Source: Promethearchaeota archaeon (GTDB lineage Archaea > Asgardarchaeota > Heimdallarchaeia > Hodarchaeales > Hodarchaeaceae). Taken from it: a stretch of 64,000 bases of DNA. Under the pieces are notes generated by a model that saw nothing but the letters and a program-made list of their open reading frames with translations, was not told the origin of the DNA and did no database searches. This document shows positions 5,908 through 61,518 of this stretch, in pieces. The stretch covers positions 1 to 64,000 of the forward strand of contig JBHLMN010000022.1 of NCBI GenBank assembly GCA_048938105.1. The letters run 5' to 3'. Every line of letters begins with the position of its first letter. Position 1 is the stretch's first letter. A program made the translations under genes and the position numbers.

Positions 5908-6040
5908 TTATTGTTCACTCCTCTTTGGTATTACTTAAGTGGTTATCAACTCCTGACGATCTAGATAACATCCTCAAAGCATAGATTACTTTACTGAGCC
6001 TTCTGTCTTGATCCTTGATAAAACCCTGTTGGAATAATCC
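5908..6040 (+). repeat. dispersed intergenic repeat family, partial copy (right arm and tail)
   Basis: tcactcctctttggtatt..agtggttatcaactcctgacgat and tgataaaac..tggaataat align with copies at 31934 and 57720. Confidence 0.65.
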
Positions 6041-6049
6041 CACATATAG

Positions 6050-7495
6050 TCAAAAATTAATCTCATTGGCAATTTTTTTAATAGCATGGATAAGAACATC
6101 AAAATCTTCTGTTTTACTTCTGTGATTTGTGATAGCAACTCTAATTACAAAATTTCCTCTCAATATTGTATGGGAGGGGACTGCTATACCTCTCTCATAC
6201 AATTGAAACAGAATTTCTTCGTTAAATTTATTGAGCTTATCCTTGTCTAGTCCCTCTTTCTTGTATCTAAAACACACAATATTCATGGAGGTAGGTGCGA
6301 GTAGTTCCAAGTTCTGTTCTTTCTCGATTAGCTCTGTCAAATATTGTGCTTGTTGAATGTTTTGTTCTACTAAGCGGCCGTATTTTTCTATTCCATGCTC
6401 TTTTAGGCTCATCCATATTTTTAACGCTTTGAATTCACCAGACATTTCAACCCCATAATCACTGAACCATATTTTTCCTCCTGTTACACCTCGAATTCCC
6501 TGGGAGCAATAATCTGGGCTAAGAGCAAATGTTCGATAGTGGTCTTTTGCACTTTTAACAAGAACACAACCCGCTGCATAATTCACATACATCCACTTAT
6601 GAAAATCAAAAGCAATTGAATCTGCGCATTCAATTCCATCTGCAAGGTGATGGGATCTTGGGGATATTCTTGTTAATGCACCAAACGCACCATCGATATG
6701 AAACCACATGTTTTGTTGTTTTGCAATATCTGCAAGTGCATTAAGATTATCTACTGCTCCAGTATTAACTGTTCCAAGATTTCCAATGATACAGATGGGT
6801 TTGTAATTATTTTGCCTATCCTTTTGTATCATTTCTTTTAACTCGTCAAGATTAATTTGAAACTTCTCAGTCACAGAGATTCTTCTGAGGTTTTTATTTC
6901 CAATTCCTAGGAGTTCAATCGCCTTTTGCAGAGAACTGTGCATTTCCTCGGATCCATAATAAGTTAATTTAACAAAGTTTGATTGTAATCCTTCTTCTCG
7001 AACATCAAATCCTGCTTTCACATTTCGAGCCACAGTGAGTCCAATTAAATTCGCCATGGAAGCCCCTCTAGTTATCAATCCAGATGCTTGGGGATCATAA
7101 CCTAGCATTTCTTTCACCCATTCAATGATCTGATTTTCGACATAACTAGCACCATGTTCAAAATCTCCAGAAGTTGCATTCAAAGCTGAAGCAATTAAAT
7201 CTCCATAGGCACCAAATAGAGTACCTGTTCCAAAGACCCAACCCCAAAAAAAGGGGTGAATATTTCCCAATCTATAAGCGATCACATTCTCTTTCATTTC
7301 ATCATAGATTGAGTGAATATTCTGTCCCTTTTTAGGGATTGATCCTCGAAATCTTCCTTTCACTTCTGGTGGGATAGGTCGCCAAACTGGTTGACTTCGG
7401 ATATTCTGCAAATAATTAACCATATCATCAATAATTTGGTGTCCTAATGTTCTCATCTCCTCCCACTCTTCTGGATCTAACGTCTCTTCTATCAT
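6050..7495 (-). CDS. PLP-dependent group II decarboxylase (aromatic-L-amino-acid/glutamate decarboxylase family)
   Basis: [36 protein letters not shown] and the DFHKW PLP lysine. Confidence 0.93.
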
Positions 7496-7733
7496 TAAAA
7501 TCTCCCTAGCTAAAACATAAACATACTCATGAATTCATTACATCTTCAAAGACAATTAATCATCCTTCCATTCATTTGAATTAAATATCTTTTTTGCCTT
7601 TTGTTTAACTTAAAATTCCATAAGAACTTCATTGATAAGGTTTTATTTGTTATAATTCTGTAGTAAGCATTATATTTCCAAGCTCGAATAAACTCGATCT
7701 CCTAGAGTTTTTCGGGTTGGCTCTTTATATTAA

Positions 7734-7790
7734 ATGGTTGATCACGCCTCCTTGGTAAAACTCTAGTGTTCAATTGTTCCTGAAAATCTA
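7734..7790 (+). repeat. dispersed intergenic repeat family, partial copy (right arm)
   Basis: atggttgatcacgcctccttggta..agtgttcaattgttcctgaaaatc vs atggttactcactcctccttggta at about 31995. Confidence 0.65.
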
Positions 7791-7846
7791 AAAAGCATTC
7801 TCTAAGTGTATTGAATAATCATTGGGTTGTAGAATTTATTAATGAA

Positions 7847-9688: not shown

Positions 9689-10465
9689 TTATTTCTCCCA
9701 TTCTTTTTTTCGCCAAACCTTTGGAATTAATGCTCCTACTCGTTCTCTATACTCACGATAGGGTTGGCCAAATCGTTTCAGTAAATCCTTTTCTTCATAG
9801 TATATATACACCGGGACATAAATAACCACCAAAATGGTAACCCATACGGTTATAAATAACGAATTAATAAAGAAACCAATTGCAATATAAAGTGGCATTT
9901 CTCCCCAAATCCCTGGATGACGGATAATATTGTAAATCCCTTCATGAAGGGTTGTTTCTCTCATAGGTTTCATATGTTCTTTTCCTCCATGCTTTAATGC
10001 AAAATAGAGGATAATTGAACATGGTACGAAAATTAATATGGCTATTAGTATACCCAGTACGTTTTCCTGAAAGATGGCTATATTTAATTCCGTGATTGGG
10101 AACCAAATCCATAGAAACATATTTATTATCATTACTATAAGGGCATAACTCATTTTCAGTCTATCTTGATAACATTCCTCCCATGCATCTTGGCCAATCT
10201 TTTCTTCTCGAGTAACAGGCATAACACTTCTAATGCTAAAATATGCAAATAATAGTGCAGAAAGATTCAAAGATAAGAGGTTGATAGTGCTTATGAAAGG
10301 TTTATAGAAAAGAAATATGTCTTGACCTAAAAACTCTGTGTATAGTAAGAAGAGGGAAATAACAGCTATTAGGAAAATGATTGTCCAATAACCCCATCTA
10401 ATAAGACTCCAAATCCAGTTTTTATTGTTTATTTCTGTTTGATTCAGCTCTTTCATCTTCATCAT
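9689..10465 (-). CDS. isoprenylcysteine carboxyl methyltransferase / PEMT family membrane protein
   Basis: GIYNIIRHPG and EEKDLLKRFGQPYREYRERV motifs; multiple TM helices. Confidence 0.85.
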   Translation of the reverse strand: MMKMKELNQTEINNKNWIWSLIRWGYWTIIFLIAVISLFLLYTEFLGQDIFLFYKPFISTINLLSLNLSALLFAYFSIRSVMPVTREEKIGQDAWEECYQDRLKMSYALIVMIINMFLWIWFPITELNIAIFQENVLGILIAILIFVPCSIILYFALKHGGKEHMKPMRETTLHEGIYNIIRHPGIWGEMPLYIAIGFFINSLFITVWVTILVVIYVPVYIYYEEKDLLKRFGQPYREYRERVGALIPKVWRKKEWEK

Positions 10466-10591
10466 CTTAAATAATTGGTTAAGAATAATATAAATGGATA
10501 TATTGTTAGAAAGCCAATGATAACCATCGTAATCACCTCTAAAATGATTTTCAGATATTTTCCTTTGGATTCTTTCTCAGTTTGAATAGAA

Positions 10592-11887
10592 CTAACCTCC
10601 TTGCATATCTGCATAACTAACTAATCCAGTTGCACTTACTCGCGCCATTCTAATTTCAGAAGCAGGTAGGAATGCTAATCCAACAAACCAAGGTAAGTCT
10701 TTATTGATAGGATTTGTATAATAACTGGCATATATCCAACCATCCTTTATCACAACTCCAGTATAAGCTGTGTCTCCATTGCTGGGTAAATCAAATAGAT
10801 GAATTAACTTGTCATTTTTTACCTCGTAAAATGCTGTTCTTTTAGTTACCATATGGTTTCCCATATCAGTACGAGGTCCCTGATGATTTCGTCCAACAGC
10901 AAAAATTCTTCCATCTATTGAGAACAATGTAGATCCATCTAGACGCGTTTGTTTATCTTGTACAAAATTCCATGTCAGGAACGAATTGGTGGAAGTTCCT
11001 ATCATTGTACACCCATCAGGATTCCCTAGTGCGTACCCAGGTTCTCCCATGGAACCAACACGATGTGTAGAGATAAGTTCTCCATTGGGTAGAAATTCTA
11101 TGCATGCTTCTCCATTCCCCCATTCAGTATATACCTCTACTACTTCTGTCCATGCAAAGCCATCAGTTGATTTCAGTAAGACAGTTATTGTGTTTGATAC
11201 ATCTGCATCATGACTTGAAATTGTGTCCCCAGCTTTCCTCCCCGATGCTAATACATACCATGTATTATTGTCATTTGTTTTTGGTCTCCAAAGATTCCAT
11301 CCACCTTCTAAAGTATGTGTGATTGTCCCATTGCCAAAATCACGAGTAATATTAACTTCTAATTCTTGCGGAGTGGGGTAGTCAAGATACCCATTATCAC
11401 TATAGGTGAAATATGTAGTATTTGGCCCCGGATCAAATCTATAATTTGGGAGGAAGTACAGAAATAACCTCCCATTAATATCTGCAAATTTTGGGTCTCT
11501 AACATCAGTGTCCAGAAGATTTATCCTCGTCACTTCTTCCCAGATTAGCGCATCAGCAGATTTCCAAATCACTAAATCTCCATTGGTGTCTTCTAGATGC
11601 CATTTTGTCTGAGCATGAACTAACCAAAAACTTCCATTATGAAAAATCAAATCAGTATTGGAATTATGTTGTTTAGCTGGATCATTACCAGCAGGTACAA
11701 CAGTCCAATGTGATAATTGCAATATGCTATCATACGAATAGTTGGGAGGGGGTCGTATATCATTGTATATGATCCATGCTCCAAAAAGCGTAACAGGACT
11801 AATAAAAATGATATAAATAATAATCAGACAATATTTCACAATTTTTTTTCTATTTTTGCCCAAAGGAAGAAATTTTCGTAATTCCAT
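10592..11887 (-). CDS. membrane-anchored beta-propeller, sialidase-like/BNR glycoside hydrolase
   Basis: N-terminal TM, Asp-box-like S.D...W repeats, DVRDPKF, LPSNGDTAY. Confidence 0.7.
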   Translation of the reverse strand: MELRKFLPLGKNRKKIVKYCLIIIYIIFISPVTLFGAWIIYNDIRPPPNYSYDSILQLSHWTVVPAGNDPAKQHNSNTDLIFHNGSFWLVHAQTKWHLEDTNGDLVIWKSADALIWEEVTRINLLDTDVRDPKFADINGRLFLYFLPNYRFDPGPNTTYFTYSDNGYLDYPTPQELEVNITRDFGNGTITHTLEGGWNLWRPKTNDNNTWYVLASGRKAGDTISSHDADVSNTITVLLKSTDGFAWTEVVEVYTEWGNGEACIEFLPNGELISTHRVGSMGEPGYALGNPDGCTMIGTSTNSFLTWNFVQDKQTRLDGSTLFSIDGRIFAVGRNHQGPRTDMGNHMVTKRTAFYEVKNDKLIHLFDLPSNGDTAYTGVVIKDGWIYASYYTNPINKDLPWFVGLAFLPASEIRMARVSATGLVSYADMQGG

Positions 11888-12252
11888 AATATTAGAGTCG
11901 GGTATAAAATGAAGTAAAAATAATTTGTTAATTAATAATGAGACGTGAAAAAGAAGGACATAAGTTGATTTTTTCCAGAAACTCGTAAATGGATTTTGTG
12001 AGATTGGATAGAGTTAGTTGTATTCTAAATTCTCCTTTTTTTCACTTTGAATTTGGACAGACAATGAATTCGCTACTAAATCATACACAAACCCAAGAAA
12101 TCATAGTGTTCTGACTTCAAATACTCGCACGGTTACGTTTCGTTTATTTAACACAAGAGGTTGATTTTATGGCTAATCGAATTAAAATATGTTTAAATAG
12201 GTTCAGATTAGTTATTATGAAAACAACAATGAAGACATAGAGTGAAATAAAA

Positions 12253-14457
12253 ATGAAAAAATCATATATAAGATTAATTTTAGCAATTATTGTAAGTTTT
12301 GGGCTTCTATTATATGTTCCTACGGCTATAAAGGCAACATTACCGTTGGAACTTAATACAGGTTGGCAGTGGGAAGTCAATAACTATGAAACGCTCATTT
12401 ATCATATTGAAGATAATTTCTTTGGATCACGTTATGAGGCATATAACATTACAGGTGAACCTTGGGTTTCTTATGGTTTCTTAGATGTATTAAATATAAC
12501 TAAATTGAAGTTTAATCAATTAACTGGAAGTGTTGAGAACTCGGATGAAGTATTCCAATGTGCAGTAAGTCTTGCGTCAGGATTTTGGCAGCTCTCGTTT
12601 TGGGACGGAGGAGACCCAGCTGGAGGCCTTACTATGGCATTTCCATTAATTCCTGTGAATACTAGTGGTCTAATAAATCAAACGCAGTTAGATGCTTGGG
12701 GTAGCGCTATGACCAATAATCAAGGAGGGACAACTTATGCACGCGCATTGCAATTACAAGAATATGTTGTTGTAAGTGATAATGAACTCCATTTATACAA
12801 TTCAACCTCGCCGACTTTTCAATATGTAAATTTGACATATAATAATAATGGAATACTTGAAACTGCATATGTTAATGTTGAAATTGATACGGGGGAATCA
12901 ATAATATTACTTGACCAATCTATAACAAGAGAAACTGGTGACGTGAATAGTCTATTAAACCCAATAGATGAAACTACTGTTGCTGTAAATGCTGGAGATA
13001 GTCTAATTTATCAATTTTCTATGAATGGCATTCCCCAAGTGTATCGAAGTTATAATATTACTTATGTCGGAGAAATTATGGGGGAATATCAAGGTAGCAA
13101 GAAATTGTTTTGGGGAGCGAACGCGACCAGATATAATTTTGATCCATCTACAGGTACTTGGATTATTGATCCTGAATTGATTGATCAAACAGTGGGAGGT
13201 GGTGATGATAATTATCTTTTCCTCCAGATGGATGGTCCCACAAATATCATTCATCCAGTAGGTACAAATGGTTCAATTTTAGAAAGGAATTTAGCTCCTA
13301 TGTTTGGTTCAGTGCATGGTGGATTTTTGGATACCTCCGAAACTGGTGATTGGTGGGTAAAATTCTCTAATACAACTACTGGCCAATGGATACGAATAGA
13401 ACTTGAACCAAATACGGGTATTTTGCTGAACGTGTCATTTACTCAAGGAAATAATGTTTTAATGGAATATTTAATTCGTGACGTGAATGGTCTATTAAAC
13501 CCAATAGATGAAACTACTGTTGCTGTAAATGTTGGAGATAGTCTAATTTATCAATTTTCTGAGAACGGTGTTCACCAAGTGTATCGAAGTTATAATATCA
13601 CCTATGTCGGAGAAATTACGGGGGAATATCAAGGTAGTAAGAAATTGTTTTGGGGGGCGAACGCGACCAGATATAATTTTGATCCAACTGAAGGTACTTG
13701 GATAATTGATCCTGAATGGACTGAACAAACAGTGGGAGGTGGTGATGATAATTATCTTTTCCTACGGATGGATGGTCCCACAAATATCATTCATCCAGTA
13801 GGTACAAATGGTTCAATTTTAGAATGGAATCTAGCTCCTATATTTGGTTCAGTGCATGGTGGATTTTTGGATACCTCCGAAACTGGTGATTGGTGGGTAA
13901 AGTTCTCTAATACAACTACTGGCCAATGGATACGAATAGAACTTGAACCAAATACGGGTATTTTGCTGAATGTGTCATTTACTTATGGAAATGATATTTT
14001 AATGGAATATCTAATTGATGAGGATGATTTTCCTCCAATGTCAGAGGATCTGATCCCCAAAGCAACTTTTATAGCCAATTCAACGACAATTTTCGAAGGT
14101 GAATGGGTACAATTTAATTTTACTGGATCTCCTGGTGATTTGCCAATAGATGGTCAATGGAATTTCGGTGATGGGTCAGCAATTTCGACAATTGAAAATC
14201 CTACACATCAATATACTACAGCAGGAACTTATACTGTAACTTTAACAATAATTGATAATGATGGAGATATCGACGTCTACTCGATGAATATTACTGTGAA
14301 TCCTATTGTGGATACTACCTCTACTTCTACCTCTACTTCTACTTCTAGCACAAGTGAGGAAAGTGAAGAAGAAAGTGGTGGAGTAACACCTAGTTTTGGC
14401 ATCAGTATCAGTATCATCAGTATAATTGGTATAATCCTGTTAAAAAAGAAGCATTAA
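12253..14457 (+). CDS. secreted surface protein with two 180-aa repeats, PKD domain, S/T linker and PSF-type C-terminal anchor
   Basis: signal peptide; WNFGDG..ENPTHQYTTAGTYTVTLT PKD motif; TPSFG + TM + KKKH. Confidence 0.88.
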   Translation: MKKSYIRLILAIIVSFGLLLYVPTAIKATLPLELNTGWQWEVNNYETLIYHIEDNFFGSRYEAYNITGEPWVSYGFLDVLNITKLKFNQLTGSVENSDEVFQCAVSLASGFWQLSFWDGGDPAGGLTMAFPLIPVNTSGLINQTQLDAWGSAMTNNQGGTTYARALQLQEYVVVSDNELHLYNSTSPTFQYVNLTYNNNGILETAYVNVEIDTGESIILLDQSITRETGDVNSLLNPIDETTVAVNAGDSLIYQFSMNGIPQVYRSYNITYVGEIMGEYQGSKKLFWGANATRYNFDPSTGTWIIDPELIDQTVGGGDDNYLFLQMDGPTNIIHPVGTNGSILERNLAPMFGSVHGGFLDTSETGDWWVKFSNTTTGQWIRIELEPNTGILLNVSFTQGNNVLMEYLIRDVNGLLNPIDETTVAVNVGDSLIYQFSENGVHQVYRSYNITYVGEITGEYQGSKKLFWGANATRYNFDPTEGTWIIDPEWTEQTVGGGDDNYLFLRMDGPTNIIHPVGTNGSILEWNLAPIFGSVHGGFLDTSETGDWWVKFSNTTTGQWIRIELEPNTGILLNVSFTYGNDILMEYLIDEDDFPPMSEDLIPKATFIANSTTIFEGEWVQFNFTGSPGDLPIDGQWNFGDGSAISTIENPTHQYTTAGTYTVTLTIIDNDGDIDVYSMNITVNPIVDTTSTSTSTSTSSTSEESEEESGGVTPSFGISISIISIIGIILLKKKH
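12938..14017 (+). repeat. intragenic tandem duplication, 2 x 540 bp
   Basis: gacgtgaat.gtctattaaacccaatagatg recurs at a 540-bp offset. Confidence 0.92.
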
Positions 14458-14483
14458 GCTACAAAACATGAATTAAAAGACAT

Positions 14484-14505
14484 TATCCGTATCAATATAC
14501 GGATA
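14484..14505. terminator. perfect 9-bp inverted repeat (possible terminator or operator)
   Basis: tatccgtat-caat-atacggata, 27 bp after the stop of 12253-14457. Confidence 0.35.
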
Positions 14506-14935
14506 TTCGGGACTATATATAACTTCAAACGACATTAAAGAGATTTTTGGACTAAGATTTCACAAAGATTTACTTATAAAAGAATTTTAGCCTTGATAGG
14601 TGTAGTCATCTGTATATTGATAATCTAGCTATTGAGTTAGTGAATAAAATTATTTTACTTAGAAGCTCATTTGATCATGAAATTTAAAACTCAGAGTCTT
14701 AGTTAGCTCTCTTTTAACTCATCTGTAACCCTGAAGTTAATCATCATTAACTCTTCGACACCCATCAGGGTTTTCTAGGTAATCGTTACTTATATGGATT
14801 TGAAAGTTCACCAAATCCCGTTAAAAAACATCCTGATTTATATTTGTAAACAGAAATTGCACTTAGGATTAAATACTTAAGAATATCAGAAATAACTTGT
14901 TTAAAATAAGATAATAATCGAATTGATGATTCATA

Positions 14936-18184: not shown

Positions 18185-18276
18185 CTCACGTTATTTATCA
18201 AAAATATACGGAGAAAGAAAGGGAATTCTTCAAGGAAAGTTATTTCGAGCATCATCAAGATTATTGATTATTACAA

Positions 18277-24923: not shown

Positions 24924-24953
24924 CTTTAAACTCTTCAAAGAGTGAGTAAACAT

Positions 24954-25025
24954 CATTAATCCAAGGAGGGGCCTAAAAAAATCATAATCACTCCTCCAAG
25001 GTATTGAAAAAGTGTTTATTTACTC
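24954..25025 (+). repeat. dispersed intergenic repeat family, copy with shortened spacer
   Basis: ccaaGGAGGGG (24965-71)-N19-CTCCTCC (24991-97)aaggtattg..gtgtttatttactc. Confidence 0.75.
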
Positions 25026-25471
25026 GCAAATTTATTTGATGCTCTATTTAACGTAATTTGCTTACGTAATTCACTTAGTCTTTTGTGATTCTCGTAGGGT
25101 TTGATGGCAATGAGATAATCAGCTTCAGGAATAGGTCTATTGAGTTCTTTTTCCTTTTCTTCAAGTATCACAAATCGAGATTGTAATTTATCGCAGGGAA
25201 ATTCATCGCAATAAGCACAATTAGGTAGTTGTTTCTTTACCACACAAGGACGAACAGGGCAGGCTTTATCCATCAAATCAGAAGTTTCTGTATCTGATGA
25301 AAGACATCCATCACAAGAGATTTGATCTGCAGGAATCCGAAATCCAAAATATTCATACCACTTGTCACTTAAAAGACGGGTTTGATCTTGCTCTTGGATA
25401 TTTTTCTTATATGCTTGGCAGAGATCACACCGAAAACCACAACACGATATCTCTGGATTCATCTTAATCAC
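25016..25471 (-). CDS. DUF3795-type Cys-rich (CGxxCxxC) protein
   Basis: CCGFRCDLC, CDGC, CPVRPC, CAYCDEFPC. Confidence 0.85.
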   Translation of the reverse strand: MIKMNPEISCCGFRCDLCQAYKKNIQEQDQTRLLSDKWYEYFGFRIPADQISCDGCLSSDTETSDLMDKACPVRPCVVKKQLPNCAYCDEFPCDKLQSRFVILEEKEKELNRPIPEADYLIAIKPYENHKRLSELRKQITLNRASNKFASK

Positions 25472-31795: not shown

Positions 31796-31933
31796 TTCTC
31801 TTTCCCAGAAGCTACTGCATTTGACCTATATGTAGACTAGTGCACCTAGGTTTTAAAAGACTTGTTTCTACATTTTAGAATTTTTCAAGAAAAAAGGATC
31901 GTCTGAAAGCTTAAGCGTAAAAATAAAAAAATT

Positions 31934-32175
31934 CGTGACAAAAAGAAGGGATAAGGTTACTTATTGGAGGGGACACTCCAGATAAGAATTCAATATGGTT
32001 ACTCACTCCTCCTTGGTATTGTATAGGTGCTTATGACAATTCGATATAGTTCAAATCATCAAAGCTTGTTACGCATTAAACGCCAATGAAGAAACAGTAC
32101 CAATGTATCAACAAAGATCAAAGCTTTACTTATAGGAGGAGATTCTCAAAAAATTCATTCTTGATAGCTGAAATA
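31934..32175 (+). repeat. dispersed intergenic repeat family, full copy plus start of a tandem second unit
   Basis: GGAGGGG 31966-72 / CTCCTCC 32006-12; 61/84 gap-free identity with the copy from about 57784; ttacttata.ggaga recurs about 170 bp later. Confidence 0.85.
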
Positions 32176-32197
32176 TGGTTCTTAAATCTAAGATTTT

Positions 32198-34095: not shown

Positions 34096-34652
34096 GTAGA
34101 GTCACCATAATAGTATTCCCAACCTTTCTTGACATAGGGGTTCAGGATTAAGAGGAATAAAATCTTCTTAAAGCTTACTAATGGTCTTAATACAATACCT
34201 TATAAAAAATCGAAATAAAGGTTTCAGACTCTTTCGGAGGATAAGCAATTATCATGATTAGATGATGATTTCAAGTTCTCATTTTCTTGAACTACTAGCA
34301 TGTTTGGTAACCTTGCTTGGTTCCAAGGGGGATCCCAATTTTAGACTAATGAATTCAATCGTCCCAGAAGTTTTTGGCGTCGTTGATTGTATTCTGATTC
34401 AAAGTAACTATCAGTAATTGCAAATGATTCTAGAGAAAAATCGAGATGAAGATCCAGTGCTCCTAATTATTTCTCGGAAAACCTCTTGAAAAACTAGATA
34501 ATATTCTTAAAAACATTTTTTAAAGTGAGAGTCATTTCAGTTTCATGGAGGTTGTCAATATTGAGCAATAACTCAATAAAAGCATTATTTTTTGAAGGAG
34601 AGTTCAATAAAGCGTTAAATTTAATAGACCAATTGCCAGTCAAAGACAAATT
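34096..34652 (+). repeat. about 556-bp direct repeat, copy 1 (divergent promoter region plus 5' ends of both flanking genes)
   Basis: about 90% identical to 39198-39753 by eye. Confidence 0.95.
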
Positions 34653-36354
34653 GAAGGGATCTGTCTATAAAAGCGGGATTCTCCTAGCTAAAGGTCAGTA
34701 CCAAGAGTATTTCAATCTGATTGATGAGATTATTGAAAAAGGAAATGAACAAGGAGATCGATTTGCTATTCTAGGAGCTCATTTTTTCAAGTATTTGGCT
34801 TACGATTTTCTCGTGATTTCAAGATGGCTGGGAATAGATATATTTGCCTCATCAGGATTTTTAGAAGAAATATCAAATTTAATTCAGTCATTTGAGCATT
34901 TTAGTGATGAACAAACGCAAGAATGGGTTTCATTACTTTATTGTCACCAATCTTGGATGGAATTACTATATTCTGATTTCAATCATAGTTTAAAATCTGT
35001 TAATAAAGCATTAACCATTGGAAAAAGGATCAAGTCAGCGATTGCAAGATGTATTGCATTAATACAATTGGGGGAACATTATTTCAGGACAGGGGACCTC
35101 TCTTCAGGATTTGAATATACACAACAAGCATTAACCTTGGCTAGCAAGGAAAATCTGAGATTGTTAACCTGTGCATTATATAGAAAACTTGGGAAAGAAT
35201 CAATTCGAAGAAGGGATCTGGTAAAGGCTTCAGAATATCTAAGTGAAGGAATGACTTTAAGCAATGAAATAGCTTATGAAAATATGGTGGAAAGTATCAC
35301 AAAAAGTTTTATATTTTTACATTTGATAAAAGGAGATTATGATAGTGCATTAGAATTTTTAAGGAAAAATTACCAGATAATAAGGGAGAAACATTGGGAT
35401 TGGGAACTAAGGATTATTTACAATCTATTTGGGGAAATTTATAGGTTGAAAGGCGATCTAAAAAACTCTCTAGACAATTATCAAAAAAGCTTGGTAATAG
35501 CGACTAAATTAGAGGATGCATATGGCCAAGCAAGTGCATATAGGCACATTGGAAAAGTCTATTATGATCAAGGAGCATTTCAAGAAGCTTTGGAGATGTT
35601 CCAAAAAGCCCTTCAGAGTTTCAGCCAATTAAAGGGCCCTAAACAATGGGGCTTCCTTAATCAAGCTAGTTGTGTATATGGATTAATCTTAGTAAATGTT
35701 GAATTAAATGACCTTGAACAAGCTAAAATGTATTTGAATAAACTAGAGGAAATTAATAAACTACCAATTAGTAAATTTTCAATTAGACCTAATATTAACC
35801 TGATCTACCAATTTTCAAAAGCTTTAATGCTAAAAGCAAGTAAAAGAATGAGAGATAAAGTAAAAGCCTTGGAAATATTTGAGGCAATGTCAAAAAAAGA
35901 ATCTATCGATCTAGATGACCTTGGTTTTGCATTATTCAATATATGTGACCTTTTACTTTATGAATATAGAACTTCTGGAGAAACAGAGATCTTTCAAGAG
36001 ATTAAAGAAATAACAGAGAGATTATATAATCTGGGAAAAGAAAAGGTCATTCCTCCATTAACAATTAGAAGCATGATAATACAAAGTAAACTTAGTTTAA
36101 TAGAGGGTCAATTAGAAGATGTTGAAAAGATATTAGAAAAAGCTAAAGAGATAGCAATAGAGTTTAATCTTGAGTATTTGCTTAATCTTGTTGAAAAAGA
36201 GCAAAACAATGTTAAAAGTGAATTAGAAAAATGGAAATCATTACTCAAACGAAATGCACCAGTCAATGAACGACTAGAAAAAGCAGACCTAGAAAATTAC
36301 GTCAAGAGTGCGTTACGAGTCGTGAGTACCTTTCATGAAGATATTCAAGGATGA
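34561..36354 (+). CDS. tetratricopeptide repeat protein
   Basis: TPR repeats and conserved C-terminus; GGAGG SD at 34547-51 favours a start at 34558 or 34561 over 34525. Confidence 0.9.
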   Translation: MSNNSIKALFFEGEFNKALNLIDQLPVKDKLKGSVYKSGILLAKGQYQEYFNLIDEIIEKGNEQGDRFAILGAHFFKYLAYDFLVISRWLGIDIFASSGFLEEISNLIQSFEHFSDEQTQEWVSLLYCHQSWMELLYSDFNHSLKSVNKALTIGKRIKSAIARCIALIQLGEHYFRTGDLSSGFEYTQQALTLASKENLRLLTCALYRKLGKESIRRRDLVKASEYLSEGMTLSNEIAYENMVESITKSFIFLHLIKGDYDSALEFLRKNYQIIREKHWDWELRIIYNLFGEIYRLKGDLKNSLDNYQKSLVIATKLEDAYGQASAYRHIGKVYYDQGAFQEALEMFQKALQSFSQLKGPKQWGFLNQASCVYGLILVNVELNDLEQAKMYLNKLEEINKLPISKFSIRPNINLIYQFSKALMLKASKRMRDKVKALEIFEAMSKKESIDLDDLGFALFNICDLLLYEYRTSGETEIFQEIKEITERLYNLGKEKVIPPLTIRSMIIQSKLSLIEGQLEDVEKILEKAKEIAIEFNLEYLLNLVEKEQNNVKSELEKWKSLLKRNAPVNERLEKADLENYVKSALRVVSTFHEDIQG

Positions 36355-36550
36355 ATCATTGTTTAATCAAGACATTAATACTGGAACGATCAACAATGAG
36401 ATGAATGTGTGCGATGTGGAAAGAGGGGGTTGTTTTACCCATGTGAGGGGTGTCTCCAAAGGAAAAATCGAGTTGATGAAATCATTCCTCCTAGATATTC
36501 CTCAGATGCTTATTGACTCATGAAAATTCGAGAGAGTTCAAATCATCAAA
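36355..36550 (+). repeat. dispersed intergenic repeat family, full copy
   Basis: tGAGGGG 36444-50 / tTCCTCC 36485-91; tail gcttattgactcatgaaaattcgagagagttcaaatcatcaaa matches 32028-32063. Confidence 0.8.
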
Positions 36551-36558
36551 AATTAATT

Positions 36559-39237: not shown

Positions 39238-39753
39238 AGGGGTTCAGGATTACGAGGAATAAAATCTTCTTAAAGCTTACTAATGGTCTTAATACAATAC
39301 CTTATAAAAAATCGAAATAAAGGTTTCAGACTCTTTCGGAGGATAAGCAATTATCATGATTAGATGATTTTTTCAAATTCTCATTCTCTTGAACTACTAG
39401 CACGTTTGGTAACCTTATTTGATTCCATGGGGACTCCCAATTTTGGATTAATGAATTCAATCGTCCCTGAAGTTTTTGGCGTCGTTGATTGTATTCTGAT
39501 TCAAAGTAACTCTCAGTAATTGCAAATGATTTTAGAGAAAAATCGAGATGAAGAGCCACAGCTCCTAGTTATTTCTCGGAAGACTTCTTGAAAAACTAGA
39601 TAATATTCTTAACACATTTTTTAAAACGAGAGTCATTTCAGTTTCATGGAGGTTGTCAATATTAAGCATTAACTCAATAAAAGCATTATTTTTCGAAGGA
39701 GATTTCAATAAAGCGTTTGATTCAATAGACCAATTGCCAGTCAAAGACAAATT
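39198..39753 (+). repeat. about 556-bp direct repeat, copy 2 (contains a dead 5' stub of the TPR gene)
   Basis: matches 34096-34652; TPR TTG changed to TTA and homology stops after about 30 codons. Confidence 0.95.
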
Positions 39754-41979: not shown

Positions 41980-44900
41980 ATGACAATGAAAAAATATCTG
42001 AAAATATCTTTAATAGCTTTAGGACTTTTGTTTACTTTATCAAATGTTATTAACTATTCTTTGGCTGATCAAGCAATTAACACTAAGAATCACTTAGAGA
42101 CGATGGAAAGCATTACTAATTCTATTGAGAATGGTGATTTCGAATTAGGGACAACAGATGGTTGGGGATTAAAGTATTTAAAGGCGGGAGAAACAAATCT
42201 ATACGAGGTTTCAACTAATAATCCCCATACTGGAACCTATTCTTACTATATGTATGCCATTGCGTACAATCCCACTTACCGGGGATGTGTTATAGAAATT
42301 GGGCAAAATATCACTGTGAATGCTATAAGTAGGTTCAACCTCACAGGAAATGTATACGTCGATCAATGCACCTGTTACACTCCCTATAGTTCATGGGCTG
42401 GAATATATGTTGTATTCTATAATAGTGATCAGGATGAGCTAGGTCGGGTGTACTATCGTTTTGCAGAAAACCGAGAGTGGGGATCTCATGAATATGAGAT
42501 AGAACTATATAACCAATTGGACTCTTGGTTAGAATTTAACCGAAACATCGCCCAAGATTTTGTTAATGAAATCGGAGGGGATAGTAGTGAAATCACGCAA
42601 ATCGAACTGGTATTTAAGGTAATAGCGAGTGATGGAGATCAATCCGGGGATCGAGGGTATTGTGAGGCCTATTTTGATGATTGGAACCTAGAACACCATC
42701 CTGTTGCTAATACTATTGCAAATGGCGATTTCGAATCAGGAGCAACATTTGGTTGGGGATTAAAGTATTTAAAGGCGGGAGAAACAAATCAATACGAGGT
42801 TTCAACCAATAATCCCCATACTGGGACCTATTCATATTATATGTATGCCGTGGCGTATAATCCTACTTACCGGGGATGCTATATAGAATTTGGGCAAAAT
42901 ATCACTGTGAATGCAATTAGCAAGTTCAACCTCACAGGTTATGTATATGTTGATCAATGTTCAAGCGCTAACACGTATCCTTCATGGGTGGGTATCTATA
43001 TTGTTTTTTACAATAACACTCAGAATGAGCTTGGTCGAGTGTACTATCAATTTGCAAGTGATCATCAATATACTGAATTTGATCATGAGATCAACTTATA
43101 CAATCAATTGGACACCTGGCTAAAGTTTGATAGAAATATTACTCAAGATTTTGTCGATGAAATTGGTGGGGATATTAGCGAAGTTTCGCAAATCGAGCTG
43201 GTATTCGACACCCATGCGAGTGATGGAGATCAATCTGGGGATCGGGGATATTGTGAGGCCTATTTTGATGATTGGAACCTTGAACGCCATCCTGTTGCTA
43301 ATACTATTGCAAATGGCGATTTTGAATCAGGGACAACACTTGGTTGGGGATTAAAGTATTTAAAGGCGGGAGAAACAAATCAATACGAGGTTTCAACCAA
43401 TAATCCCCATACTGGGACCTATTCATATTATATGTATGCCGTGGCGTATAATCCTACTTACCGGGGATGCTATATAGAATTTGGGCAAAATATCACTGTG
43501 AATGCAATTAGCAAGTTCAACCTCACAGGTTATGTATATGTTGATCAATGTTCAAGCGCTAACACGTATCCTTCATGGGTGGGTATCTATATTGTTTTTT
43601 ACAATAACACTCAGAATGAGCTTGGTCGAGTGTACTATCAATTTGCAAGTGATCATCAATATACTGAATTTGATCATGAGATCAACTTATACAATCAATT
43701 GGACACCTGGCTAAAGTTTGATAGAAATATTACTCAAGATTTTGTCGATGAAATTGGTGGGGATATTAGCGAAGTTTCGCAAATCGAGCTGGTATTCGAC
43801 ACCCATGCGAGTGATGGAGATCAATCTGGGGATCGGGGATATTGTGAGGCCTATTTCGATGATTGGAGCTTGAAACCAAACTCAATATTCATCAATAACA
43901 ATGCTGATTTTGCTAATTTAGGCTTTCCTGGCACTGGTGTGCTAGAAGACCCATATTTGATAGAGAATTACACCATTACTAACTCGGAGGCCATCTTGAT
44001 AGAAATTCATAATACTACGGCATATTTTCGAATTAAAAACAATCTTCTTGACGGTTTAGAAAGAAATTATAATGGCATCTATCTTCATAACGTCACACAC
44101 GGAACGATCGTCAACAATACTATTCATAGCTGTAAGCAGGGTGTTACAGCAGATTACTATTCCCTTAATAACACCATTACTAACAATTTCATTTCCAACT
44201 GTGCATCATATGCTATTTCTATTCAGGGTGCCTCAGATCTCAATAATGTGACACATAACACTGTTTTTAACAGTGATAGTAGTGGTATTTGGTTGGAATC
44301 AGCTTTCAACACTACACTTCTAAACAATACTATTTCTACCAGCGGTTACGACGGTATTGAGCTATTAGCCTCTGATTATAACGACATTTTTAACAATACG
44401 ATAATAAATAGTACTCGTTATGGCATTAGTCTTATTGGTGGTTCGGCTTGGAATCTCATAGAGTGGAATGATTTCATCAACAACAAAGGTCAAACCTCTC
44501 AGGCTCTTGATGATGTTTCCTTATCTAATACAACTTTCAATTACAACTATTGGGGTGATTGGACAAGCCCCGACAGTGAACCTAATGGTATTGTTGACCA
44601 TCCATACTTGATCGATGGTAATGCAAATAACAACGACCCCTATCCATTAACATCTCCAAACAATCCCATCACAGATCATTCCCTCTCTATCCCTATAGTT
44701 TTATATCCTAACGGTGGCGAAACAATCAGTGGTACTATTGAGATCGAGTGGTCGGCAGCAAGCGATACATGGGGACATCTGATTACTTATACGGTTTATT
44801 ATTCAGCTGATGGTGGAACAACTTGGAACGAATTGGCCTCTGGTTTAACGACTACCTCTTATGACTGGGATACTACCACAGTAGCCGATGGAACCGATTA

Positions 44901-45153
44901 TTTAGTCAAAGTTAATGCTACCTGTGTTGAAGATTTATGGAAAGAGGATATGTCTGATGGCAAATTCTCAATTGATAATCCCGAACCTACAACAACGACT
45001 TCTACTACAACAACACCTATCATAACAACTTCTACTACAACAACAACCACTTCCGAAACTGGTGCTACTTCAGGTTGGACATTTTCCATTCTTCTTCTAT
45101 CAGTGTTAACTGTACTAGTATTGAAAAGAGGAATGAAACCAAAATCCAGCTAA
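41980..45153 (+). CDS. surface protein: three carbohydrate-binding-module-like repeats + NosD beta-helix + Ig-like domain + Thr-rich linker + TM anchor
   Basis: NGDFE.G...GW jelly-roll starts x3, beta-helix, YPNGGE Ig domain, SGW + TM + KR. Confidence 0.9.
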   Translation: MTMKKYLKISLIALGLLFTLSNVINYSLADQAINTKNHLETMESITNSIENGDFELGTTDGWGLKYLKAGETNLYEVSTNNPHTGTYSYYMYAIAYNPTYRGCVIEIGQNITVNAISRFNLTGNVYVDQCTCYTPYSSWAGIYVVFYNSDQDELGRVYYRFAENREWGSHEYEIELYNQLDSWLEFNRNIAQDFVNEIGGDSSEITQIELVFKVIASDGDQSGDRGYCEAYFDDWNLEHHPVANTIANGDFESGATFGWGLKYLKAGETNQYEVSTNNPHTGTYSYYMYAVAYNPTYRGCYIEFGQNITVNAISKFNLTGYVYVDQCSSANTYPSWVGIYIVFYNNTQNELGRVYYQFASDHQYTEFDHEINLYNQLDTWLKFDRNITQDFVDEIGGDISEVSQIELVFDTHASDGDQSGDRGYCEAYFDDWNLERHPVANTIANGDFESGTTLGWGLKYLKAGETNQYEVSTNNPHTGTYSYYMYAVAYNPTYRGCYIEFGQNITVNAISKFNLTGYVYVDQCSSANTYPSWVGIYIVFYNNTQNELGRVYYQFASDHQYTEFDHEINLYNQLDTWLKFDRNITQDFVDEIGGDISEVSQIELVFDTHASDGDQSGDRGYCEAYFDDWSLKPNSIFINNNADFANLGFPGTGVLEDPYLIENYTITNSEAILIEIHNTTAYFRIKNNLLDGLERNYNGIYLHNVTHGTIVNNTIHSCKQGVTADYYSLNNTITNNFISNCASYAISIQGASDLNNVTHNTVFNSDSSGIWLESAFNTTLLNNTISTSGYDGIELLASDYNDIFNNTIINSTRYGISLIGGSAWNLIEWNDFINNKGQTSQALDDVSLSNTTFNYNYWGDWTSPDSEPNGIVDHPYLIDGNANNNDPYPLTSPNNPITDHSLSIPIVLYPNGGETISGTIEIEWSAASDTWGHLITYTVYYSADGGTTWNELASGLTTTSYDWDTTTVADGTDYLVKVNATCVEDLWKEDMSDGKFSIDNPEPTTTTSTTTTPIITTSTTTTTTSETGATSGWTFSILLLSVLTVLVLKRGMKPKSS
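42115..43870 (+). repeat. intragenic tandem triplication, 591-bp unit
   Basis: units 2 and 3 show no mismatch by eye over about 515 bp; unit 1 is diverged. Confidence 0.95.
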
Positions 45154-45399
45154 CATCTTCCTTCTTCTCCTCCTTTTTTATTTTAAACAATCCCTATTTA
45201 CAGTATTATACTTGTTTCTTTTGGAAATACACTTTTTTCCTCTAAATAAATCATTTAGCGGGAAAACTCACTTTCTCATTCTATAACTTAAATGCCAATT
45301 TCAAATTTGCATGAAATATGATTTCTATTGTCTAAAGTGCTTTTTTAGGGGGAAATTGAAGAGAAAAGAGAATTATTTCATTCGAGAATTATTCAAATA

Positions 45400-45512
45400 G
45401 TGATTCTCAAAGGTCTTGATTTGTGAATCAACCCCTTTTTTGTATCGGTGTTTAATTACTCATGAAAATCCGAATTGAAATCAGCAGGAAGAATAAACAT
45501 TATTATGTGGAG
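45400..45512 (+). repeat. dispersed intergenic repeat family, degenerate copy (right part)
   Basis: tgtatcggtgtttaattactcatgaaaatccga vs tgtataggtgcttat and ttactcatgaa in other copies. Confidence 0.6.
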
Positions 45513-50730: not shown

Positions 50731-50887
50731 TAGTAATAGATTGTTAAGATCCCAGTTATAGAAGATGTCTGTTATTGTCCTCTTTTTCTTGGAATCGCTA
50801 TCAAAAATCAAAAAAAGTAAATGGATTGGAACACCTTTTTGAAAGAATATCTTTGGTAAATAAGATTCTACTCCTCTATAACACCTC

Positions 50888-52328: not shown

Positions 52329-52886
52329 TTATGGTACGAGGACTGTGGTGTAAAGATCCCACCGAGTAAGGACGGTTGTGTGGAAGGCTAAGACCCCAAC
52401 ATATAACTGGGTCTCGGCTTGAAGCGGAAAGCGAGATTGAAACTCAAGGCGAACCTCCTCGTGTGCTGAAAGGCGGAAATCACCAAAGAGGACTGTGGTA
52501 CATTCGACGTTTTGGATATCACCTAACGACTCATTGAACTCTACCAAGTCATCTTTCAGACATACAAACACCTTTGCAATCTGAAATAGATCGTTTTCTG
52601 GGATGGGAAATCCACCATAGCTATTAAAGTCACAATAAACTGTGAAACGGATTGTCCCGTTGGTATACACTTCTTCATCAGTTAGAATAAGGCCGAAACT
52701 GGCCCGTGGGCCATATGGGTCCTCAGTTTCATCATTGCTTGTTTGTAACCCATGAATATACAAGTTAATCAAAGCTGTTGTGCTGATGGTTAGGATAATC
52801 ACCAGTGCTCCGACACTGATGACTTTTGTGCGGGAACTCGCTTTCTGCCATTGAGCTGTTAATTTACGGACTTGAGACCATTTCAT
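52329..52886 (-). CDS. membrane-anchored hypothetical protein
   Basis: single N-terminal TM, beta-rich domain; visibly more GC-rich than its neighbours. Confidence 0.75.
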   Translation of the reverse strand: MKWSQVRKLTAQWQKASSRTKVISVGALVIILTISTTALINLYIHGLQTSNDETEDPYGPRASFGLILTDEEVYTNGTIRFTVYCDFNSYGGFPIPENDLFQIAKVFVCLKDDLVEFNESLGDIQNVECTTVLFGDFRLSAHEEVRLEFQSRFPLQAETQLYVGVLAFHTTVLTRWDLYTTVLVP

Positions 52887-52969
52887 CCTGATCTACCCCA
52901 AAGAATTCATTATACGAGTATGTAAACGAGGGCATCCCAAGCATCAATAATACTATGTCCATAATAATT

Positions 52970-53458
52970 TTAAATATTCTGTTCCCGAAGTTTAATGATT
53001 TTTTCCTTAAATTCTGGATCCACTGGATTCAAAATAGGGATGATTTCTAAGTTCCCACGAAAATCACTGTCAAAAGTAATAAACGACTTAACCTGGGAAG
53101 CTAAGGCGATAGCTGCATGTAACGCATCAGCTGCGTAAAGATTGTGGTCAAAAATTTGTTTTCGGGATGCCATGATAGCAGATCGTGTTACAGGGATTAT
53201 CTTTAGCACTTTTTCTTCAACCATTTCTCCGAGTTCAGAGAGGAAGAAATCCAAAGCTAATTTTGCAGCTTTTTCTTCAATCTTCCCGAGATTGGCTTGT
53301 TTTTTTAAAGCACGAAACATTTCAAGTATAGTCCATTCACAAGTAATCCCCTGAAAGTTAGGAGTCAATTGATTAAGTAACCAGTCTGCAAGAGCATTAT
53401 TTTCAACAGGACAGTAGGCATTATAAAAAATATTTGTATCTAAATACACCCCCATCAT
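52970..53458 (-). CDS. vapC: PIN-domain toxin (VapC-like)
   Basis: VYLDTN, E, DALHAAIA, FITFD acidic tetrad. Confidence 0.9.
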   Translation of the reverse strand: MMGVYLDTNIFYNAYCPVENNALADWLLNQLTPNFQGITCEWTILEMFRALKKQANLGKIEEKAAKLALDFFLSELGEMVEEKVLKIIPVTRSAIMASRKQIFDHNLYAADALHAAIALASQVKSFITFDSDFRGNLEIIPILNPVDPEFKEKIIKLREQNI

Positions 53459-56090: not shown

Positions 56091-56106
56091 AATATAAAGA
56101 TTCACT
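56091..56106 (-). promoter_or_regulatory. putative BRE/TATA promoter
   Basis: same 16-mer as 29265-29280. Confidence 0.7.
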
Positions 56107-57293: not shown

Positions 57294-57486
57294 ATAAAAC
57301 AATCATTACTATTATAGAAAATAGCATTTCAAGAGGTAGAAGTCTAGAAATTTAAAATATTCACAAGTTCCTGGTTATAAGTAATTATATCAAATTGGAA
57401 GTACAGTGGCTCTTGAAAGAATCATTCAAGGTGACTGGGAGGAATATCTCCAGAATAAGCTCCCCACTATATCAAACAAGTTATAT

Positions 57487-57708
57487 TAAACAGGACTTGA
57501 GAACTTGAATAAGAAAAAAGGTGTCGGAGTAATTCTATCTGTAATGGGGATTATTCTAATGTTTATTACTAGTTCTATAGAAAGAGAATTCTTTTCATTT
57601 GAACAATTTCTTTAGATATCATCTGGATTAATTGTGGGAATTGGTCTTTCTCTTCTTTTGAACTTTTCTTTATTCCAAAAAAAAGAAGGTAATTCTTAAT
57701 AATAATAG
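57487..57708 (+). pseudogene. pseudogene copy of the small membrane gene 50530-50730
   Basis: over 90% identical to 50518-50739; TGG changed to TAG at 57613-57615. Confidence 0.9.
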
Positions 57709-57719
57709 TAGAAAACTCG

Positions 57720-57890
57720 GTGATAAGATCGCTGGAATGATGGTCATAAAAGATCATTAACCCCCAGTTATAGGAAAGATGACATAGGGTTACTCCTAGG
57801 AGGGGTCTCTCCAAGGAAGAATGCGAGATGAGGACTCACTCCACCTAAATATTGCATGAGTGCTTCTTTACTCATGAATATTTCAATTGA
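57720..57890 (+). repeat. dispersed intergenic repeat family, full copy
   Basis: GGAGGGG 57799-805 / CTCCACC 57839-45 (33-bp spacer); outer symmetric boxes AGGAAAGATG / CTTCTTTACT. Confidence 0.85.
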
Positions 57891-58261
57891 AATTCATATA
57901 TGGTCTTGTTTTTGTAATACCTCAATCTTTCTTTTCTTTCCTGAATCCATTCAGTGCTCCGTTAAAAGTTGGTGAGCTTTACGATAAGTTTTTTTGTTTA
58001 AAGATTACGCTATATCCTTTTTTTTAATCCATTGACTCTTGTTTTTTTAACTTCCAACTCCAAATACAATTAATACTCCCCCGAATCCTATAAGGAAGTA
58101 AGCTCTGAACCTCAGGATTATTTTGATGGGTTTCGTGTACTCAGAAAATAAGTAGCTAGAACTTGATTAGTCTAATTCTAGGTGAGGTTTTTAAAGTAGA
58201 AAAATGTCCGTAATAAAATAAAAGCTTGAAAAAACCAATTTGATATCATTTCGAGTAAGGA

Positions 58262-59653: not shown

Positions 59654-60148
59654 ATATTCCAGCTACCTGGATCGATATATTCGTCATATCAACCCTCAAA
59701 GTGAGTACATAATCAGTAGTAAATCTCCCTCCAGTAAATATGTCCAAACCATTTATTCAGTAGAATAATTCCAATGAATGTGGATATGAATACATCCGTC
59801 ATGAAACCCAAAAAGATAATTGAAACCTTTTGATTAATATTTATCAAACTTCCAACCACTCTAGAATTTCTAGATTTCCCCCCATAAAAACCTTGATACA
59901 AATCTAATATAATACTAGTCTGGGATCTCTCGACTGGTAAGCTCCTCCTGACTCTCTCAGGGAAAAATAATAATGAACTTTCATCTATGAACAAATAGTC
60001 ATCCTCTAAGTAATAAGAATATTTACGATTTCAAGAAATTAACTACCCAAATATTTTAATAAGAGGAGAGGTCATTGATGTCATAGAAAATATATATCGA
60101 TAGTTATAATATTGATATTAATTTGGAGGAGATTTTATCTTAACGAGT

Positions 60149-61294
60149 TTGAAATGGAGTCGAAAACGTAATTATCGTAAATACAACGTTTTTCTTACCC
60201 TACGGTTAACTTTGACTATTTCATTCTTTATAACAATAACAGTAATTCCTTTAACAAGCATATTGAGCTACACTTCATCCAGTCTTATAACAATAAAAGA
60301 GCGTAGGTTTGAGGGAAATGAAGGAACAAGGATTACTACAAACTTGAACGATACTTTCTGGGAAAAAGGCCCCCCATTGCCAATCAATGATACAGGATAT
60401 GCTCATGCCTATAAGGGGAAAATCTATTTTGTTGGAGGAAAAGCAGTTCAAAAATACGATCCCTGGAAAGAACAATGGACAGTGATAAAACAAGAAGGCT
60501 TGGGTTATCACCCATTTAGCGGTGATAGTGCCTTAATAGGTGATAGAATTTATATGGTTCATGGATGGACTGATCGGAACACAACATATTATGATATATC
60601 ATCAAACTCCTTGGAAAGTTTTAGTCATCCGCAAAAAATGCGGTTAGATGTAGCTGTTGCCGCTGTCGATGATATTCTATATGTTTCGGGAGGATGGATT
60701 AGTGGAGGATCTGCTGTTAGAACAGTTGAAGCTTATAATCCTAAAACTGATAAATGGAGTTCGGTTCAGTCAATGAGTACTACTAGAAAGCAACACGAAA
60801 TGGTAGCTGCTGGAGGATTTCTCTATGTGATTGGAGGGTACAGTGGATCAGGATATAGAACTCGGACAAAAACAGTAGAAAAATATGACCCATCAACTGA
60901 TGAGTGGGAATATTTAGAAGATGTCCCAGCTTATTATACACAACATGGATCAACAACTACGCATGATGAAAGCATCATCATATCGAGTATCAAGAGGTCT
61001 ACCCATGTTTATAATTCTTCAGAAGAAAAATGGGTTCTAGGGCCAAGATATCCAGAACATTCAGGTATTATTTACTGGGCAAATTCTCTAACTTTTTTTA
61101 ATGGTAAAGTATATTCTATAGGATTGCGTGATTCACCAGGAAATTATTATAATTCAGTTTGGATAACCAAAATCTCTGAACCGACTGAATCAGAACCTCA
61201 AAGTTCATCTTTTGGCTCTCTAACGTTCATTTTTTCTCTGATTATCTTAGTTTTATTTGTAAATAAGTGTTTACGATCTAACGAGAAAACCTGA
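60149..61294 (+). CDS. secreted/anchored Kelch-repeat beta-propeller protein
   Basis: YVSGG..VEAYNPKTDKW and LYVIGG..VEKYDPSTDEW; N- and C-terminal hydrophobic helices. Confidence 0.9.
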   Translation: MKWSRKRNYRKYNVFLTLRLTLTISFFITITVIPLTSILSYTSSSLITIKERRFEGNEGTRITTNLNDTFWEKGPPLPINDTGYAHAYKGKIYFVGGKAVQKYDPWKEQWTVIKQEGLGYHPFSGDSALIGDRIYMVHGWTDRNTTYYDISSNSLESFSHPQKMRLDVAVAAVDDILYVSGGWISGGSAVRTVEAYNPKTDKWSSVQSMSTTRKQHEMVAAGGFLYVIGGYSGSGYRTRTKTVEKYDPSTDEWEYLEDVPAYYTQHGSTTTHDESIIISSIKRSTHVYNSSEEKWVLGPRYPEHSGIIYWANSLTFFNGKVYSIGLRDSPGNYYNSVWITKISEPTESEPQSSSFGSLTFIFSLIILVLFVNKCLRSNEKT

Positions 61295-61475
61295 TGTTAC
61301 TCACTGCTGAAAACTTGAATCCTTGAAGAGTTTCTAAACAAAAAATTATATGGCAGATACTCAATCAGATTTCTTTCGCTTATCTTTAACATAAATTGCC
61401 AGGACTGCCTTCAACACCACGTTCGTCAATTTCAAAGAGCTCAACAGCTTTGAACCTTTTATAACCATAATTACG

Positions 61476-61518
61476 CCAGTTATAGGAAAGATGGCATAGG
61501 CTTACTCCTAGGAGGGGT
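61476..61518 (+). repeat. dispersed intergenic repeat family, left-half copy
   Basis: 41/43 identical to 57764-57806; ends right after the GGAGGGGT arm. Confidence 0.9.

Follow-up and report, generated by a model that had tools for sequence, protein, structure and literature searches.

A co-oriented repeat in a Hodarchaeales genome is the worn junction of a Ras-like GTPase gene and a HerA-like ATPase gene

Introduction

The genome of the Hodarchaeales (Asgard) archaeon G000 (5.85 Mb, 35% GC) contains a degenerate repeat that recurs on a single strand between blocks of accessory genes. What this repeat is, and how it came to stand in a co-oriented row, is the question addressed here. The window that was analysed is the first 64 kb of the 108-kb contig C37; positions given without a contig name are those of C37. 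A first-pass annotation, made from the sequence of the window alone, had proposed an integron-like array of dedicated imperfect-palindrome sites. Integrons are present in metagenome-assembled genomes (MAGs) of Asgard archaea (PMC9668308), and gene duplication at an unusually high frequency is believed to underlie the growth of large Asgard genomes (PMC13247210). We found that the repeat is the worn junction of two genes, in which the end of a gene for a small Ras-like GTPase is followed by the putative promoter and the start of a gene for a HerA-like ATPase.

Results

The repeat is a GTPase-HerA gene junction

Read on the minus strand, the unit consists of the last codons and stop of a GTPase gene, a spacer of about 75 nt, and then a ribosome-binding site, the ATG and the first codons of a HerA/VirB4-like ATPase gene. 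The GTPase is a Ras-like protein of 173 aa whose end, ..EFS*, lies within ACTCATGAAAAT. The ATPase (HerA/DUF87, 718 aa) has GGAGAGG before its ATG and begins MSKxIPSFHFEHIPLNVDRSSIN... Both sole intact genes are on the minus strand of C37: the start of the HerA gene (81279-83435) falls within the copy at 83410, and the end of the GTPase gene of the 173-aa type (97825-98346) within the copy at 97737. The repeat is colinear with a functional gene junction, and coding relics of both genes, including distal parts, have survived in the region.

The two inner arms, GGAGGGG and CTCCTCC, 33-34 nt apart, that had been taken for a dyad have their place in this junction. The left arm is the complement of the bases directly before the HerA start codon (the ribosome-binding region), and the right arm corresponds to a GGAGGAG motif in the HerA leader. 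The best-kept part of the unit is a 49-nt core made of block R (GCTTATTTACTCATGAAAAT), a variable patch of about 10 nt and block L (ACTCACTCCTCCTAGGTATT). The whole core is kept in 12 copies, and blocks L and R are well conserved in orphan copies stripped of all else, such as those at 87276 and 97737. The ATPase itself scored far under the cut-offs of the CedD, VirB4 and HerA models, with weak and partial matches, and its identification as a known defence or conjugation protein was rejected on these grounds.

Copies of the junction in the window and beyond

A profile was built from the clear copies of the first-pass annotation and run over the window with filters off, with E<0.01 as the significance level. 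Eleven copies or fragments were found on the plus strand, in agreement with the annotated strand. The one minus-strand match at this level (7391-7506, E 0.009) is borderline, and among weaker matches both strands were equally represented, like noise. The unit is about 110 nt long and degenerate, the copies being 75-85% identical to each other (BLAST and nhmmer). Genome-wide, nhmmer gave about 17 copies on C37 (12 strong and about 5 partial), all on the plus strand across a 100-kb variable island, and just two copies elsewhere, at C63:104948-105045 and C61:51133-51185. Beyond the window the array continues at 67445, 69553, 79785, 83410, 87276, 91207, 95978 and 97737. The units between copies measure 1.8-17 kb and hold 1-14 genes on both strands. 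Profile scans and gene maps bear out that the copies are co-oriented, confined to one region and placed between accessory gene blocks. The copies in the window are the following, all on the plus strand.

5890-5963, leftmost copy of the array, degenerate and reduced to the core (E 6e-7)
7730-7791, degenerate core-only copy (E 1e-4)
18200-18237, remnant of the left part only, recognised by orthology with the sister genome G003
24924-25036, copy with internal deletions, abutting the stop codon of a DUF3795 gene (25016-25471, minus strand) (E 9e-17)
31924-32061, full but degenerate copy in which the HerA ATG is lost and block R is disrupted (E 1.2e-24)
32112-32188, weak second copy after the preceding one (E 0.006)
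34430-34493, twin of the copy at 39535-39595 (E 0.004)
36400-36548, full copy including the HerA N-terminal relic, between a convergent TPR gene (plus) and a NosD gene (minus) (E 1.7e-29)
39535-39595, weak degenerate copy in a duplicated promoter segment of 557 nt (E 9e-4)
45360-45483, partial copy that clearly keeps only block R (..TTTAATTACTCATGAAAAT) and a short GTPase tail (E 1e-8)
50743-50768, about 25 nt of the left end of the type seen at 57720, after a duplicated small membrane gene (50515-50739 matches 57484-57708 at 92%)
57768-57899, fullest copy in the window (E 5.5e-31)
61481-61528, left-part fragment only (HerA start region), breaking right after GGAGGGGT and identical to 57764-57806 at 41 of 43 positions (E 2e-4)

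In minus-strand order the copy at 57768-57899 holds a GTPase 3' relic, the 49-nt core, and the HerA leader with first codons; it adjoins the 3' end of a relic of an RDD-family gene (57692-57767). Most of the annotated copies were recovered, namely the clear ones and the partial ones at 5908, 7734 and 45400. The one at 41012 was not (E>0.05), that at 50743 shrank to its fragment of about 25 nt, and 61476 is a left part only. Among the weak traces, 18220 is genuine, since G003 retains a full copy at the orthologous position; significance was not reached at 9515, 11944, 14560-14690 (E 0.31), 26348 (E 2.1) or 33432 (E 1.1). The left third of the proposed consensus (tgataa..ccagttatagg..) belongs to the subfamily at 57720, 61476 and 50743 and not to the whole family.

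The gene content (Pfam scans) fits an Asgard archaeon, with Ras-family GTPases and Kelch, TPR, LRR and NosD/beta-helix surface proteins. Rfam at gathering thresholds gave no match over the window, and no tRNA or tmRNA gene was found in it.

Coding relics beside the copies

A relic search of C37 (tblastn and translation) gave pieces of both genes. Those of the GTPase, where they survive, are found on the right-hand side of a copy, and those of HerA on the left-hand side.

36341-36478, minus strand, HerA N-terminal coding relic of about 30 codons, MGKTTPSFHIAHIHLIVDRSSINV, and then a stop (tblastn E 1.3e-6 and translation)
65484-65627, GTPase C-terminal relic
67573-67770, GTPase C-terminal relic
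69338-69580, HerA C-terminal relic
69614-69685, GTPase C-terminal relic
74630-74695, HerA C-terminal relic
79622-79864, HerA N-terminal relic of 81 aa
89421-89612, GTPase C-terminal relic

In the intact gene the HerA C-terminus is 2 kb away from the junction. Since the relics of HerA and GTPase include such distal HerA pieces, at least five whole GTPase-HerA pairs were formerly present in the region, in one orientation. Most relics resemble the resident HerA more closely than they do that of any sampled species, so an import of foreign alleles is not supported, with the reservation that sampling is thin. The ratio of nonsynonymous to synonymous substitution (dN/dS) of the relics is 0.07-0.58. 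Tandem duplicates are reported to be frequent in Asgard archaea, sometimes to comprise whole gene blocks and to have a median dN/dS of 0.37 (PMC13247210), and the values of the relics are close to that median.

The junction in related genomes

Profile matches, one to five per genome, were found in 14 of 20 genomes of the genus. In G009, G011, G012, G014, G008 and G017 the best match stands directly before an intact HerA orthologue (66-87% aa identity). Blocks R and L are nearly invariant across the HerA orthologues, and they are also found upstream of 67-69% HerA paralogues of G012 and G009, where no GTPase gene precedes. A promoter or cis-element would be expected to leave such conservation, at a constant distance before orthologous and paralogous genes. 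Because the conservation is deep, is kept at a fixed distance from the start codon and includes distant paralogues, the core is most simply read as the putative HerA promoter, in which an AT-rich, TATA-like box and a spacer precede the first part of the leader. A minus-strand transcription start would then be predicted about 20-30 nt downstream of the TAAATAAG motif before HerA.

Orphan copies without HerA are present in G003, G012, G014 and G009. The genes that flank HerA differ in every species, and therefore the whole neighbourhood is a variable island. In G003, the closest sister, the place orthologous to the 18.2-kb remnant has a full copy after the same GNAT gene, and in G000 the core of this copy has been lost outright. 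Differences in gene content between G000 and G003 begin inside the element. The relatives are mostly fragmented MAGs, in which repeat arrays assemble poorly. A block R scan of public metagenome contigs gave 67 loci, and these are chance matches because none was confirmed by the profile. In species genomes, a strict pattern matched three contigs of Hod/Hermodarchaeota MAGs and, by chance, one Paenibacillus, and no others.

Two observations in the relatives concern single loci. On contig C372 of G012 (4590-5434), two co-oriented copies 760 nt apart surround a single gene for a small membrane protein; a paralogous locus has the same two flanking genes, and its second copy is merely a trace. In the closed sister genome G009 (G009:C1:3157001-3177000), the HerA orthologue (87% aa identity) overlaps a 724-aa NosD/beta-helix gene by 4 nt (10118-14487 of this segment). 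HerA and the surface protein may form an operon, possibly the ancestral block of the array.

Structure and recombinase searches

No consensus helix was found in the aligned copies with RNAalifold. The GGAGGGG and CTCCTCC arms showed no covariation; 143 of 500 shuffles were as good, and slid controls were similar. The arms annotated as an inverted repeat are present, and a functional dyad is not supported. Single-strand DNA folds differed in each copy (z -2.4 to +0.5), 6 of 8 copies being within 1.3 standard deviations of their shuffles. Good copies at 87276, 97737, 5890 and 7730 have no left arm at all. Direct reading of the alignment gave no inverted-arm symmetry in the 49-nt core, and no terminal inverted repeats or target duplications were found at the copies.

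The absence of a recombinase noted for the window extends to the whole contig. In Pfam scans of essentially all open reading frames (ORFs) of at least 90 aa on C37, no domain of a recombinase or transposase was found; no genome-wide search was aimed at serine recombinases, HUH nucleases or casposases. A genome-wide PF00589 search, which did not include the IntI-specific domain, gave no tyrosine recombinase on C37; the three of the genome are on contigs C14, C56 and C45. By the same scans, no integrase gene, intact or split, lies in or beside the units on C37. The dif-like GGCTGGATT motif has 65 matches in the genome and none on C37. Our own search found no recurrent 11-6-11 palindromes, and a 14-mer census was uninformative.

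Three identities were rejected on these results. An integron attC array or a cluster of attC sites lacking integrase (CALIN) does not fit, as there is no conserved hairpin, no IntI on C37, and the units are not short co-oriented ORFs. The core lacks the arm symmetry of an Xer/dif module, a 28-nt site related to the host dif in which two inverted arms of about 11 nt enclose a 6-nt spacer, and the dif-like motif of the genome is absent from C37. A miniature inverted-repeat transposable element (MITE) or repetitive extragenic palindrome (REP) would be dispersed, with copies on both strands; here 12 of 14 strong copies are on one contig and one strand, and terminal inverted repeats are missing.

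A motif of the dif-like family, ..TCGCAAAAGGCTGGATTAACAC, recurs on contigs C39, C43, C63 and C5 of G000, in one orientation per contig (nine times on C39, plus strand), and is absent from C37.

Boundaries and orientation of local duplications

When the copies were compared with the reference junction, homology stopped at positions between -273 and -22 towards HerA and between 0 and +248 towards the GTPase. The entire core is kept in 12 copies, but the ends of homology are scattered over these ranges and the boundaries are ragged. Pairs of local repeats, defined by an identity of 78% or more, a length of 60 nt or more and a distance of 1-110 kb, number 84 direct and 8 inverted in G000, with 27:1 on C37 and 57:7 on other contigs. 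C37, which is 1.8% of the genome, holds a third of these pairs, by far the highest density. Because local repeats in this genome are mostly direct anyway, the co-orientation of the copies is no pointer to a polar site.

Other direct repeats in the same region extend into adjoining sequence. They include 447 nt with the 5' end of HerA, the core and the beginning of a NosD-like gene (79621/83246), 225 nt of a small membrane gene (50515/57484) and 103 nt of a GNAT 3' end (18069/23265). Some NosD-like cargo genes share 80% identical ends. The most decayed copies (5890 and 7730) stand at the left end of the array, and cores have been lost outright in places.

A divergent promoter region of 557 nt is also present twice in direct orientation (34096-34652/39198-39753, 93%), each time with a weak copy of the junction element. 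One duplicate serves an intact TPR gene and the other an intact NosD gene.

Discussion

The array is best explained as the fossil of block duplication or re-insertion that preserved orientation, was driven by homology and was followed by decay, rather than as a row of integron-type recombination sites. We put the probability of this explanation at roughly 0.55. Ragged boundaries, the bias to direct repeats, the ancestry of the relics and the decay of the copies all favour it. We infer the following course. A block with the GTPase, HerA and surface-protein genes (NosD-like and others) would have been multiplied several times in direct orientation, by unequal or homologous recombination between earlier copies or by the return of circles that had looped out between copies. 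Deletion of the superfluous HerA and GTPase genes, with retention of the cargo, would then have left a row of decaying junction relics, all in one orientation, between the blocks of accessory genes.

Several points weigh against this explanation. NosD-like cargo proteins near different copies are only 24-59% identical, compared with about 80% DNA identity of the junctions. Whole-block duplication would thus require very fast or mosaic evolution of the cargo, homogenised junctions, or joining to unrelated cargo, and as the sole process simple tandem duplication of whole blocks is weakened. The copies at 79785 and 87276 have 47 of 48 core bases in common and unrelated flanks on both sides. The patch of about 10 nt occurs as three recurrent alleles that are discordant with the flanks, and block R is exactly what remains in three partial copies. 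Synteny between G000 and G003 is broken at two positions of the element, -56 and -62, which are no more than 6 nt apart. Substitutions in the relics avoid columns constrained in functional orthologues (rho 0.46, p 1e-8), a pattern that fits divergence while in use, or orphans that are still doing something. Finally, the promoter role assigned to the core is suggested by conservation and position in sequence comparisons. Gene conversion between copies, together with divergence during use, could explain these awkward points. A recombinase that acts on the core could explain them too, and an attachment-site reading is therefore kept as a minority one.

In that reading, which we regard as unlikely, the 49-nt core is an attachment (att) site at which integrative elements or excised circles, with a GTPase-HerA backbone and varied cargo, were serially inserted by a recombinase encoded elsewhere, after which the backbone decayed. 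Archaeal integrative elements are known to pile up as direct repeats at one att site, and tandem accretion of this kind is seen with SSV- and pNOB8-type integrases. In both cases direct repeats with a core of 40-60 nt bound successive inserts of the same orientation. Co-oriented direct repeats bound each unit on C37, relics resembling a backbone (about 80% DNA identity) contrast with dissimilar cargo, and a discrete core is kept in 12 copies, nearly identical with unrelated flanks at 79785 and 87276. The start of G000-G003 differences inside the element, the orphans with other cargo in G003, G012, G014 and G009, and the change of HerA neighbours from species to species also speak for this reading. 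However, the 108-kb contig has no integrase, integrase fragment or transposase, the three tyrosine recombinases being elsewhere, and the target is not a tRNA gene. The breakpoints are spread over more than 50 nt and seem not to be fixed, the core is without arm symmetry, and its blocks are kept upstream of old HerA paralogues in the manner of a promoter. Other repeats with arbitrary boundaries record homology-driven events in the same region.

A bolder version, less probable still, holds that the core is the working site of an archaeal gene-capture system. FtsK is known to help Xer at dif, and by analogy a recombinase whose gene lies elsewhere, perhaps with the neighbouring DNA-translocase-like ATPase of the HerA/FtsK superfamily as its helper, would insert and excise multi-gene blocks. 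If this were true, arrays of 100 kb with surface-protein and accessory genes in Hodarchaeales would be built at the core, and a new archaeal mechanism of gene capture would be tied to a HerA-like motor.

It is also improbable, to a slightly greater degree, that the orphan copies have been kept as working promoters or regulator sites that put cargo genes or antisense RNAs under HerA-like control. The conservation of blocks L and R at 87276 and 97737, the avoidance of constrained columns by relic changes, and a minus-strand gene within about 300 nt downstream of 7 copies would suit such a role. About 10 copies, however, face the 3' end of a convergent plus-strand gene, which is no better than chance. 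The progressive decay at 5890, 7730 and 39535 and the outright loss of the core at the 18.2-kb remnant, compared with G003, also argue against it.

A true integron-like array (attC/CALIN), an Xer/dif-module array or a mobile repeat of the MITE/REP kind is largely refuted and very improbable: co-oriented intergenic repeats between accessory genes and the known integrons of Asgard MAGs (PMC9668308) speak for it, but conserved hairpins, covariation, R'/R'' motifs, IntI, the dif-like motif on C37, terminal inverted repeats, target duplications and dispersal are all lacking, and the units are of 2-17 kb with genes in mixed orientation. The first-pass comparison with integrons had a real basis in the co-oriented repeat between accessory genes with no integrase beside it, as in CALINs, including archaeal ones (PMC9668308). 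In integrons the attC sites are structure-specific, imperfect single-strand hairpins (R''-L''/L'-R') that separate short, mostly single ORFs, largely of one orientation, whereas the repeat on C37 has no conserved fold, is accompanied by coding relics and separates multi-gene blocks.

Homology-driven duplication and loss, as we propose it, has known counterparts. As in the tandem and block duplications of Asgard archaea (PMC13247210), the same gene block is repeated in direct orientation and the paralogues are under relaxed purifying selection. The difference is that on C37 most backbone genes have been deleted, the main trace is a row of promoter-junction relics, and the cargo is largely dissimilar.

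Orphan or displacement arrays are known at the toxin loci of Rhs and contact-dependent inhibition (CDI) systems. There, too, it is part of a working gene that is repeated, the orphans are co-oriented beside the intact gene, and homology is thought to drive the gain of modules. On C37, in contrast, what recurs is an intergenic junction that takes in one gene's 5' end and another's 3' end, no toxin/immunity logic is present, and the intact copies are inside the array and not at its end.

If the preferred explanation is correct, the island is a readable record of Asgard genome growth, in which at least five former gene pairs have been cut to promoter-junction stubs and genes for surface proteins, transporters and signalling have been retained and shuffled between them. 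This may imply that no dedicated recombination machinery is needed to produce what looks like a cassette array with a polar site, and caution is advisable with similar candidates.

Other observations were made in passing. A PIN-domain gene (162 aa) adjoins a 185-aa gene without a family match at 52329-53458, and the two may be a toxin-antitoxin-like pair inside one unit. Internal tandem repeats occur in a 1057-aa NosD-like gene (41980-45153; units of 591 nt, 89-97% identical) and in a PKD-domain gene (12933-14016; units of 540 nt, 94%). Elsewhere in the genome, at about 9-53 kb of contig C8, at least seven paralogues of the 173-aa Ras-like GTPase (26-55% aa identity) are clustered, which is another local family expansion.

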